Origin: Lama guanicoe
Taxonomy: Eukaryota
NCBI GenBank assembly: GCA_013239625.1
Contig: MU053365.1
Location: 248,001 to 312,000 of the forward strand
DNA length: 64,000 nucleotides
Direction: 5' to 3'
The notes under the pieces were generated by a model. It had not been told where the DNA came from. It saw nothing but the letters and a program-made list of their open reading frames with translations, and searched no databases. The first letter of the stretch is position 1. Each line of letters opens with the position of its first letter. The translations under genes were made by a program, and so were the position numbers. Below are positions 43,810 to 47,210 of this stretch, piece after piece.

Positions 43810-44013
43810 CTTCATCCTCAAAAACAGATATATAAGATGGACATTTAGGTTGCTACTATACCTCAGCTACTGTAAATAATGCTGCTATGAACATTTGGGT
43901 GCATGTATTTTTTTGAATTACTGTTTTTGGGTTTTTTTGGACATATACCCAGGAGTGGAATTGCTGGATCATATGATAGTTCTATTTTTAGTTTTTTGAG
44001 AATCTTCCATGCT
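43345..44013 (-). mobile_element. Artiodactyl-type L1 3' fragment with (TA)n
   Basis: T-rich tail at 43345, L1 3'UTR and ORF2-end motifs; short TSD-like aaacacca on both sides. Confidence 0.85.
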
Positions 44014-44474
44014 GGAAAAACACCACTACTTTAGTCCTTTGGACTAACTTTTAATAAGGCAGGATGTTTGGGTTTCTTGAGGGCTGTTGGTTGCTGACAT
44101 CACACAGTGACGTGTAACAAACACTAGTATGAGATAGGTGTCCTGCAGGCAACCACTTTGTATGCCTTTTTAGGAAATGGCATTGCTCCCCCTCCCCCGC
44201 CCATAACACGGCTCCCCAGCTAAGTTCACACCTCTGTGCGCACGCACACATGCGCTCGTGCGCACACACGCTCACACACAAATACCTAGTCCTTTTTCTC
44301 TTCTTCTATGGGAAGTGTGTCTTCAGTGCTCAGTCCTGACGCAGTCAGTCCCTTTCCCCTCTGTCTGGCTAACTGGACCTTCTGGCCCAACCCCCAACCC
44401 CACAGCACCCATGTCCTTTCCTCTGCCACCCTTGCCCCTCCCTCCCCTCTGCACTCCCTACTGCCAGAGAACTC

Positions 44475-44513
44475 TCAGAGACACACAGGTTTTCACATCA
44501 GGTTGATTTTATT
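44475..44513 (-). terminator. Polyadenylation signal and GU-rich downstream element of the CXorf51-like gene
   Basis: TTTATT at 44508-44513 (AATAAA on minus), about 120 nt after the stop, followed on the minus strand by ...aaaacctgtgtgtctctg. Confidence 0.7.
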
Positions 44514-44630
44514 TTTCATTATCAATGTATCCTGTTGGTGTAATATTCAGTGCCTATACAGTTGGCCATTTCTCAATAGCTAGACCCCTGGAGATTTCTC
44601 ATCTTTCTGGGTCTGTGGCCCTGCTCCGAA

Positions 44631-45166
44631 TTACTGGCTGCTGTCTTGTTCACTTGGGGTGGTGGTCTTCTCCTTGGTCTCTTGGACCTGCTCAGCTTCA
44701 TTTTGATTCAGCTCTTCCTTTTTCTTATGGCAATGACTGCGTATCATGGACCCGCTAGCTTTCTTATTAAGTTTCCTTGATGAGGCCGGAGTTTTCTGAG
44801 AGGCCTTTTTCTTCAGGCTCCTTTGACAACGTCTGTTGAATCTAATGGCTGCCTTGGCTACCTGGAAAGACAACAGAGTGAGCACAGAAGGGCACGGGCT
44901 TGGGGAAGGGGGTAGGGGACGGAGGGGAGCAGGGGCTTCAAAAGGAATGTGGGCTGGGGAGGGGGCATGTGCCAGGCGAGGACAGGGCAGGGGTCTTATG
45001 GGGGGTGTCAACGGGCAAGAGGAGCTGGGTGGGTTCAGCTCACCTTGATGCTGCCTCTGGACCTCTGCTCGTAGGGAGTCTTCCCTTTCTTCCCCTCTTT
45101 GGTGGTTGCAGTTGGTTGTCTGGTAGCTGCACCAGGGCCTTGTGACTTCCTGGTCACCTTGGCCAT
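44631..45166 (-). CDS. CXorf51: CXorf51-like small basic protein, two coding exons join(45166..45044, 44861..44631), 117 aa: MAKVTRKSQGPGAATRQPTATTKEGKKGKTPYEQRSRGSIK|VAKAAIRFNRRCQRSLKKKASQKTPASSRKLNKKASGSMIRSHCHKKKEELNQNEAEQVQETKEKTTTPSEQDSSQ
   Basis: ATG at 45166 (gaaATGG). Exon 1 is 123 nt and ends AAG|gtgagc. The 182-nt phase-0 intron (45043-44862) ends ttgtctttccag|. Exon 2 is 231 nt to TAA at 44631. The protein resembles my recollection of human CXorf51A (MAKVT...KGRKKGKTP...RSRSG.K...KKARG.ILR..YH). Orthologue versus paralogue status is not established. Confidence 0.85.
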
Positions 45167-45210
45167 TTCGAAGACTCCCAGTGGTCTGCCCTAGAGGCTC
45201 CGAGCGCCCC

Positions 45211-45323
45211 TATATATACCCCTCCCTCCCCAGGATGATGTGGCGGCCACACCCTTTCAGGTTTATGAGGTCAGCAAGTCACTCCCCTAAGCCAGTGGTG
45301 GCCCTGGGCAGGGCTTGACATCA
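45211..45323 (-). promoter_or_regulatory. Proximal promoter of the CXorf51-like gene: TATA box plus two CRE-like elements
   Basis: TATATATA at 45211-45218, about 45 nt upstream of the ATG. TGAGGTCA at 45266-45273 and TGACATCA at 45316-45323, each one mismatch from TGACGTCA. Confidence 0.65.
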
Positions 45324-46149
45324 CAAAGCCCCATCCTGACCCCTGGAGGGGAGGATGGGGAGCAACCCAGATGTTCTGGTAGGTAGGGGGAGGCATTTTA
45401 GCTCCCCTAAAGAGCCCTTCAAACTGACATGCCACCCTTGGCATCTCCCCATGGCAGTTCTGGTGGGCCACATGGCAAACCTTTCCCCACAGCCAGCCTC
45501 CTCAGGGGTTCATTCTGTTCTCCCCCATCCTTCACCATTACCTACTCTTTGTATCTCTTGCCTAAAACCCATCCATGGTAGTGTGGCCATATTTAAAACT
45601 GGAGATGTGACTCATCTAATTTCCCTCCTACAATTTCTACTTCACACTTTGAAGATCATTCGCCTCTTGGCTACTACCAAGGAACTTTTTCACCCTACCT
45701 CCTTTTTCCAGGGTCCACATAACTGCCCTCAGTGTTCTGCTCTCCAGTCTGAAATCACGGCCTCCAGGCTAGCAAGACCTCAGTGAACACACTTGCTTTG
45801 CTGGGTTTCCTAGTTTTGTTTCAAATGCGTGTGTGGGGGTCTTGCTCATCTCAGGAGGCGTACAACCCAGGCTTAGGTTTTAACAATGTACAGAGGGTAT
45901 GAAGCAGATACACAGATGTCACAAGCTGTGCAGAGTGGCCACATACAGGAGAATACAGCCCAGAACTGATGAGTGTCCCCAGGGAGGAGCAGAGCTTAAC
46001 CAGAGGTGTGTGAGCCCCATGGACAAAGGTCTTCTCAACATGTGTCCTCACAAACCAGACACTTTTCTCATCTTGTTTTACTGCTGGCACCTCCCTTGGC
46101 ACTTACCTCACAGTGGAGACACTGGTCAAGTTCATTTCTATGAACAGCT

Positions 46150-47210
46150 ACAACAAGCTTCCAGCTTCTTGGAAGAGATCCTGTGTGTCAAATCCTGTCC
46201 ATATAGTCCCCTAGGTCTCTCATTCAGGTGGTTGGCCCCGGAGGAAAGGGTAACAGGTTATGGACTACACCCCAGGCCTTATGTTCCTAATCAACGAGCG
46301 GGCTCAGCCAGCCTGAGGTACTTACCTGGGGCCACAGCCTTTTGGCTTAGTGGGGCTTCCTGGGTTTCCCATGAAGCACGCTCACTGCCTGGTGTCCACT
46401 GGGTGCTTATTCACCCAGCCTGCATCACACTGCTTAAAATTATAAGAGGCAGAGCAAAGCACACCATAAACAAATTCAAAAGATGACTGCTTTTTAAAAT
46501 CTTTAGAACAGAGAATCTAAAACCTGAGAGAAAATGTGAAAAAAATATGAGCAGACAATTTATAAGATGTAACACTGGACTTTAACCTTATTAAAAGATG
46601 TTTAAAAGACATGAGCAGACAATTCACAAGAAAGATATAGAGCCAGCCCTTAACCATATTAAAAAGACATTTAACCTCACTAAGGGAAGAAGAATCAAAT
46701 TATAACTCCCTTGAGAAATCAAACTGACCCAAAACTGGCACAGATTTTACAATTAGCAGACGTGGACATTAAAATAGTTATAATAATTGTATCCCATATG
46801 TTCAAAAATTATGTAGAGACATGGAAATTATAAGAAAGATCCAAATTGATCTTATAGAGATGAAAACTATAGCATCAGATGACAAGCACAGTGGGCAGAA
46901 TAAATGGCAGGTTACAAAGGGCAGAAGGAGAAGCTGGTGCACTTGAAGGCAGCAACAGAAACTATCCAGGATGAAGCAGAGTCCATCAAGATATAAAAAG
47001 TACAATGCATTTGTCCCCCAGGAATGCAGGATTTGTTAAGCATTTGAAAAATCAATCAATGTAATTCATGTTACTAACAAACTAAAAATGAGAAGCCAGA
47101 TGGTCATCTCAATAAATGCAGAAAAAGTAATTTGATAAACTCTAATATCTATTCTGTATAAAGACTCTTAGCAAACTAGAAATAGAAAGAAAACTTCCTC
47201 AAACTGATGA
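46150..47210 (+). repeat. Copy B of the ~1.1 kb direct duplication; its L1 portion continues into the downstream L1 block
   Basis: Same anchors as copy A at an offset of about 5.05 kb. Confidence 0.85.

Follow-up and report, generated by a model that had tools for sequence, protein, structure and literature searches.

A 64,000-nucleotide (nt) stretch of DNA from Lama guanicoe (assembly GCA_013239625.1, contig MU053365.1, positions 248,001 to 312,000 of the forward strand; hereafter the window) carries an intact two-exon gene on its minus strand at window positions 44475 to 45323. The gene is transcribed and correctly spliced, the splicing being seen in Camelus-like RNA, and its 117-amino-acid product belongs to the eutherian family (Pfam PF27987) of CXorf51 and of proteins named spermatid nuclear transition protein 3 and 4 (TNP3 and TNP4). 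Within this family, phylogeny places the gene as a camelid-only, long-branched duplicate in a TNP3-like clade. It is rather likely that this spliced, camelid-only family member is a spermatid DNA-binding protein; a sperm chromatin or nucleic-acid-binding protein was proposed when the window was first annotated from its letters alone. Its orthologue is already in the databases for two camels as a hypothetical protein. The result is sound but fairly ordinary and does not overturn current understanding. It adds an RNA-supported (Camelus-like), correctly modelled gene to a poorly studied family of germ-line basic proteins and, for camelid reproduction, a candidate sperm nuclear protein.

All features of the gene lie on the minus strand. 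A TATA box (TATATATA, 45218-45211) is found 45 nt upstream of the start codon and is conserved in all four family copies of this genome that were aligned. The start codon ATG (45166) lies in a favourable context, with G at both -3 and +4. Exon 1 is covered by an RNA contig up to 45174 (45174-45044) and consists of a coding part of 123 nt (45166-45044, 41 amino acids) and at least 8 nt of 5' untranslated region (UTR); the true transcription start is probably near 45190. The intron (45043-44862) is 182 nt long, has GT..AG ends and is in phase 0; its donor GTGAGC starts at 45043, and 44862 is the last base of its acceptor TCTTTCCAG. Exon 2 (coding part 44861-44631) encodes the remaining 76 amino acids and the stop codon TAA at 44633-44631. 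The 3' UTR (44630-44490), which the RNA contig covers down to 44539, includes the polyadenylation signal AATAAA at 44513-44508 with a GT-rich stretch just downstream. The sites resembling the cAMP response element (CRE), the TATA box, the ATG, the 182-nt GT-AG intron, the stop codon and the AATAAA are all present at the minus-strand places given by the first-pass annotation. The same annotation described the gene as missed by the open reading frame (ORF) track. Because no single ATG-to-stop ORF covers the spliced coding sequence, the gene was indeed overlooked by the ORF lists, which contain just a 43-amino-acid and a 38-amino-acid piece of it.

The product is strongly basic (isoelectric point 10.6). 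It has 20 lysines and 10 arginines, 28 of which are located in residues 1-89, so that the earlier description of 30 basic residues, almost all in the first ~89, followed by an acidic tail is borne out by the computed composition; the last 28 residues hold eight aspartates or glutamates and two lysines or arginines. Serine and threonine together number 24, the motif KKAS is found twice, and serines are found in (K/R)(K/R)xS contexts. Peptides across the SHCHKKKEELNQNEAEQVQETK region are unique to this protein. The protein is predicted to be intrinsically disordered: its AlphaFold2 model has a mean predicted local distance difference test score (pLDDT) of 55.8, a predicted template modelling score of 0.12 and a low-confidence helix at residues 83-104, and the Atlas model has a pLDDT of 0.34. 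A search of solved structures with the protein returned 0 matches. In the Protein Atlas its best feature score is 0.81, within the range of shuffled proteins, and the structure rows are under the bar for naming.

Direct evidence of splicing comes from RNA. Four public sequencing runs were compared with window positions 44300-45500. Run X7 (RNA-seq, library 'reproductive system') yields one minus-strand contig of 454 nt at word depth 285, in which 45174-45042 is joined to 44859-44539. The 182 nt that the contig skips have CT..AC ends (cut +2) and coincide exactly with the predicted intron. Of its 454 positions, 16 differ from the window. Differences at 44741, 44754, 44759 and 44791 change arginine to cysteine, serine to arginine, alanine to serine and threonine to isoleucine, which are the Camelus ferus residues, and the X7 contig is therefore the mRNA of the orthologue. 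Two further differences, at 45122/45123, change Thr15 to methionine. Since Thr15 is methionine in Camelus, the C. ferus record of 103 amino acids starts at residue 15; this record probably lacks 14 N-terminal residues, because the X7 contig extends upstream of the shared ATG at 45166. Camelid testis RNA had been named in the first-pass annotation as a check of the 45044/44861 junction, and the exact junction is found in this Camelus-like contig. The statement that the intron is retained and that the gene is not a retrogene also stands, as the intron is found in all four modelled copies and its junction in the X7 RNA. The other three runs have no bearing on splicing: X14 and X18, from L. guanicoe itself (0.71 of words), give just contigs of 35 nt and 118 nt at 45404-45500, and X1 gives one 199-nt contig of exon 2 and 3' UTR and one chimeric contig.

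Relatives of the product were collected with profiles, because a word search with the single sequence gave the Camelus orthologue only (1 match among 3 candidates). A profile built from the exon-2 sequences of this genome together with the camel protein, applied to 1095 candidates at an expect value (E) <=0.01, has 24 matches, and a profile of 19 full-length members, applied to 5694 candidates at E<=0.001, has 38. All of them (24/24 and 38/38) carry a precomputed assignment to PF27987, and the Camelus orthologue, 93-94% identical to the window product, has PF27987.1 in its precomputed annotation as well. When 1.84 billion representatives were searched exhaustively with HMMER, 107 matched at E<=1e-3, of which 52 reached E<=1e-10 and 10 reached E<=1e-30; they include orangutan CXorf51A (108 amino acids, E 3.0e-21). 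By BLASTP the spliced product matches horse TNP4 over residues 1-117 (45%, E 1.4e-29) and a camel 'CXorf51A-like' protein (E 8e-28). Exon 2 by itself matches horse TNP3 (41%, E 3e-10) and cattle TNP4 (E 1e-9), and the dromedary orthologue matches orangutan CXorf51A (34% over 105 amino acids, E 1e-9). The first-pass label 'CXorf51-like' is supported by these profile and BLASTP matches, which are all of the CXorf51A/TNP3/TNP4 type. A Pfam scan of both exons found no family at E<=1, the Pfam copy used being evidently without the PF27987 model, and the camel orthologue, when scanned, gave nothing beyond a VP30 match at chance level (E 0.13) that missed the cut-off. No TNP1/TNP2, protamine, linker histone H1 or HMG-box domain was found in these scans of the exons and the camel orthologue.

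The names of the profile matches are mixed: CXorf51A(-like), spermatid nuclear transition protein 3/4(-like), several 'hypothetical' and one 'histone H1.0-B-like'. Relatives in PF27987 with TNP3 or TNP4 names are found in horse, cattle, seals, deer and lemur, and one horse record changed its name from spermatid nuclear transition protein 3 to CXorf51A between successive versions. That CXorf51 and the TNP3/TNP4-named proteins are one family is, judged by sequence, evident from the databases rather than from published discussion. A literature search found no paper that equates the two, and in the text available the single paper with both terms uses them in unrelated passages; the abbreviations TNP3, TNP4 and STP4 returned unrelated uses. 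The word 'uncharacterised' in the first-pass annotation is only half right, in that relatives are named after the late-spermatid transition proteins 3 and 4 of the boar. According to its title, a 1999 article by Akama et al. (cited in PMC5175393) deals with boar transition protein 4 (TP4) and its stimulation of topoisomerase I relaxation. The name TP4 is ambiguous, because rat 'TP4' is the HMG-box protein HMGB4L1 (PMC5036535).

In most relatives exon 2 encodes the block LFGHYHRLNExL, in place of which the window gene encodes IRSHCHKKKEEL. Among 151 family sequences compared, HYH is found in 74, and the SHCH of the window protein is common only to it and the two Camelus orthologues. Orangutan CXorf51A is also without the block. 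Since LFGHYHRLNE is not universal, its absence does not exclude family membership. The two invariant columns of the family are the serine and the lysine of KKASQK.

The orthologue in the dromedary is a 117-amino-acid 'hypothetical protein', which is identical to the window product at 110 of 117 positions and has the same start and stop. It clusters at 90% with the C. ferus record, in a cluster with no RefSeq-style accession. The C. ferus orthologue, 103 amino acids as annotated, has 93% identity over exon 2. Disruption of the frame in related species had been named as evidence against a gene, and Camelus dromedarius keeps the full 117-amino-acid frame. The ratio of nonsynonymous to synonymous substitution rates (dN/dS) between the window gene and Camelus can be bracketed only roughly, at 0.5 to 2.7, with several contig differences unlisted.

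A maximum-likelihood tree was made from 33 rows, that is, 29 named database proteins and the four modelled copies of this genome. It leaves out partial and intron-retaining predictions (nine, including the C. ferus 103-amino-acid record), further cluster members and unnamed HMMER representatives. One clade contains TNP4 and CXorf51A together with one copy of this genome, L004. The other, a TNP3-like clade (support 94/96), contains horse TNP3, a second copy, L003, and the group formed by a third copy, L002, with the window gene and its dromedary orthologue (support 92/91). The window gene and the dromedary protein form a pair with support 100/100 on a stem of 0.56 changes per column, and no non-camelid sequence joins them. 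On this topology the window gene is a camelid-only, long-branched duplicate within the TNP3-like clade.

The 2.05-Gb genome contains five family copies, namely the window gene and four others, and two of the five look broken. The three modelled paralogues (L002, L003 and L004) have the conserved promoter blocks, a TATA box, an exon 1 of 123-124 nt, a GT..AG intron of 189-204 nt and exon 2. In all four modelled genes the intron (182-204 nt, phase 0) is at the same place, after a ...RSRGxxK segment, and exon 1 has 123 nt in each of these genes except L002. The RNA junction, the paralogues of like layout and the full-length family matches together put the gene well beyond coincidence. L003 (C4372:361577-362173) encodes 136 amino acids and is 98-99% identical to Camelus 'CXorf51A-like'. 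L004 encodes 118 amino acids, with 99% identity to the alpaca and 93% to the camel CXorf51A, and is located on the contig of the window gene, 1.63 Mb away. By sequence it is L004, and not the window gene, that is the true CXorf51A orthologue of this genome. Protein identity between L. guanicoe and Camelus is 98-99% for L003, 94% for the window gene and 93% for L004. The three intact copies thus change at very different speeds, L003 being the strongly constrained member. In L002 (C3057:6172-9396) exon 1 (L002:2053-1930, minus strand) has 124 nt, and its ATG frame misses the conserved frame of exon 2, which is still open. The break is near an A-run and may reflect either a recent pseudogene or an assembly error. 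The fifth copy, at the start of contig C4372 (1280-1787) and 360 kb from L003, is probably a pseudogene, as each of its two exon-like matches has in-frame stops. Both dromedary genes, the orthologue of the window gene and CXorf51A, are on one 121.5-Mb record, and the gene is presumably X-linked. The family offers a small, tractable case of turnover among presumably X-linked spermatid genes, with five copies, of which two are broken and one strongly conserved.

Divergence of the window gene is concentrated in exon 2. Sites were counted at which one of the four modelled copies alone differs, and the counts were normalised to columns with agreement among the remaining three. Exon 2 (225 ungapped columns) has 40 such changes in the window gene, 11 in L002, 7 in L003 and 23 in L004; in the intron (179 columns) the numbers are 9, 21, 11 and 28. 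After normalisation the window gene has 40/146 in exon 2 vs 9/95 in the intron (Fisher p 0.0006). The corresponding fractions are 11/117 and 21/107 for L002 (p 0.035), 7/113 and 11/97 for L003 (p 0.22), and 23/129 and 28/114 for L004 (p 0.21), exon 2 being slower than the intron in each of these three. Exon 2 of the window gene also exceeds all flanking non-coding DNA (40/146 vs 44/276, Fisher p 0.007). Twenty-four of its 40 changes alter a residue and 16 do not. The 'fast-evolving' of the first-pass annotation agrees with this excess, with the long stem branch and with the 7 of 117 residues that differ from the dromedary. A compensated frameshift was considered and rejected, as the DNA alignment is in frame with indels of 3 and 6 nt only. 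Separate ancestry of exon 2 and the intron was rejected as well, since the informative sites of both (15:2:4 and 8:1:3) put the window gene together with L002. The excess is therefore explained neither by mixed ancestry nor by a hidden frameshift. Pairwise dN/dS for pairs with the window gene is 0.21-0.55, but dS of 0.9-1.4 makes these values too saturated to use.

The counts describe a burst that is limited to exon-2 coding sequence and whose changes are mixed almost at random. Either an adaptive episode or relaxed constraint combined with some local mutational effect could have produced it. Synonymous change in exon 2 also exceeds the intron level. A fully adaptive account would be neofunctionalisation driven by sperm competition or sex-chromosome conflict, in which the burst, following duplication within camelids, rewrote LFGHYHRLNE to the Cys/His/Lys-rich I(R/C)SHCHKKKE and the similar tract upstream of the gene (see below) is a regulatory element held similar by selection or gene conversion. 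This account is considered unlikely.

A role of the window gene in spermatid chromatin is suggested by analogy, from the names of its relatives and its composition. Its compact TATA promoter would start transcription of the gene once meiosis is over. The lysine- and arginine-rich first ~89 residues would bind spermatid DNA electrostatically during the changeover from histones to protamines, as is reported for the boar proteins after which the family is named. The acidic tail and phosphorylation of serines in KKAS contexts may modulate the binding. Because the commonest conserved block is rewritten, the activity of the window copy may differ from that of its relatives.

The window protein can be compared with three known systems. 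It shares with human CXorf51A/B (Xq27.3, palindrome P17) a size class of ~105-140 amino acids, a basic N-terminal two thirds, an acidic tail rich in serine and threonine, and predicted disorder. It differs from CXorf51A in its position in the other, TNP3-like clade, its relation to orangutan CXorf51A being the 34% measured through the dromedary orthologue. Human CXorf51 is in a palindrome, whereas no palindrome is found in the window; a P17-like arrangement was rejected, since inverted repeats of >=200 nt in the window are limited to two ~300-nt pairs. To the TNP3/TNP4-named proteins the similarity is end to end, as in the alignment with horse TNP4, with IRSHCHKKKE at the position of their LFGHYHRLNE. 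TNP1/TNP2 and protamine genes encode small basic products and have two exons, a single intron and a TATA promoter. The window gene resembles them in being small, basic and two-exon with a TATA box, and post-meiotic expression is presumed for it as well. It differs in its acidic tail and its multi-copy, presumably X-linked layout, and the Pfam scans give no sequence relationship.

A small basic disordered protein could also have another job: it might bind RNA, act in the nucleolus or with ribosomes, or work outside germ cells, and the family names would then mislead. DNA binders and RNA binders cannot be told apart by composition, the automatic names are inconsistent (as with 'histone H1.0-B-like' and the renamed horse record), and the nearest Atlas feature matches are unrelated small basic proteins with scores <=0.81, within noise. 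The two-exon TATA-promoter layout, which is like that of transition-protein and protamine genes, argues against another job, as does the finding of the spliced RNA in a reproductive-system library. In the parts available, published work also speaks for the germ line: CXorf51 is described as an uncharacterised testis-expressed family of the human X palindrome P17 (doi:10.1101/2020.12.29.424738) and is listed among round-spermatid and sperm RNAs (PMC3627604). With these points taken together, a job outside spermatid DNA binding is very unlikely. The accessible text of PMC8481210, in which human CXorf51A is an intrinsically disordered protein by nuclear magnetic resonance, does not mention transition proteins.

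Several points weigh against the reading of the window gene as a spermatid DNA-binding protein. The link to the boar rests on database names, and no boar TP3 or TP4 record was seen by name. Expression of CXorf51A is quoted from the Human Protein Atlas, in the part of PMC8481210 available, as found only in prostate and T cells, which would also suit a job elsewhere. The spliced RNA is from a Camelus-like relative and not from L. guanicoe, its tissue label is only 'reproductive system' with no stated testis sample, and the depth of the X7 contig cannot rank expression. The claim that the gene is driven by CREM is not upheld. The octamer TGATGTCA (45323-45316) differs from TGACGTCA at one position and is not found whole in the paralogues; the octamer TGACCTCA (45273-45266), also with one mismatch, has only its CTTGCTGA(C/G) part in common with them. 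Neither is conserved as an octamer in the three aligned paralogues, and the window contains 14 one-mismatch matches to TGACGTCA vs 14.96 +/- 3.58 expected, which is chance level. CREM control is not supported because the CRE-like sites are at chance frequency and unconserved.

The remaining contrary points favour the main alternative, that the window gene is a transcribed but decaying or dispensable duplicate that drifts almost neutrally. The commonest family block is lost, LFGHYHRLNE reading IRSHCHKKKE. The window branch has 23 residue changes vs 26.3 +/- 2.5 in 20,000 simulations of 40 random substitutions, which is near random, and the frame stays open in 20% of the simulations. Two sister copies are broken, L002 by the frameshift (124-nt exon 1) and the fifth copy by stop codons. 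The X7 contig differs at 16 of 454 nt, with most identifiable coding changes non-synonymous. In humans, according to the available part of doi:10.1101/2020.12.29.424738, deletions of CXorf51 show no enrichment among men with azoospermia or oligozoospermia, and both copies appeared to be missing in two controls, so that no effect on fertility is detected. On the other side, L. guanicoe and the dromedary have the same 117-amino-acid frame, start and stop, and neither splice sites, TATA box, polyadenylation signal nor start context is damaged. The abundance of the mRNA suffices for assembly at word depth 285, and net charge is preserved (+10 to +11). Nor does decay predict an exon 2 that changes faster than the adjoining non-coding DNA. 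Decay is accordingly given a real though minor chance, and a spliced spermatid DNA-binding protein is still preferred.

The core promoter common to the paralogues (45330-45205, minus strand) was delimited by four-way alignment with L002, L003 and L004. Its conserved blocks are CTTTGTGAT, CA(C/T)TGGC, GGGGAG, CTTGCTGA, AAGGGTGTGG and TCCTGGGGA(G/A)GG; the TATA box comes next. Used as a DNA query against the genome, 45170-45330 matched paralogous loci only (3 matches including itself).

Further upstream, a tract of ~500 nt (45400-45910) is 88-100% identical to L003:2214-2697 (C4372:362344-362827). It lies 190-700 nt upstream of the TATA box, is sharply bounded and includes 150 nt without a single difference. 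Promoter, exons, intron and outer flanks are 50-84% identical to L003 in 50-nt bins. Because the tract has indels of 20 nt and 1 nt relative to L003, it is not a conserved reading frame. Its other 5 genome matches are 67-76% identical, and L002 and L004 are without it. The tract, whose tie to the gene is putative, is either a gene-conversion tract or a regulatory element common to the two intact TNP3-like copies. A fast-changing copy is adjoined by a sharply bounded, gene-conversion-like tract.

An Rfam scan of 44200-46300 gave one sub-threshold microRNA match at chance level (23.8 bits vs a gathering threshold of 53, E 0.43). The window has 35 stop-to-stop frames of >=120 amino acids; a scan of 16 of them for other genes gave 0 Pfam families. 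Simple sequence of the (TG/CG)n type is found ~250-300 nt beyond the polyadenylation signal (~44225-44280), and a CA-repeat is found at the matching place in L002. The G+C content is 52% in the 2-kb bin around the gene (44001-46000) vs 36-37% in the adjoining bins.

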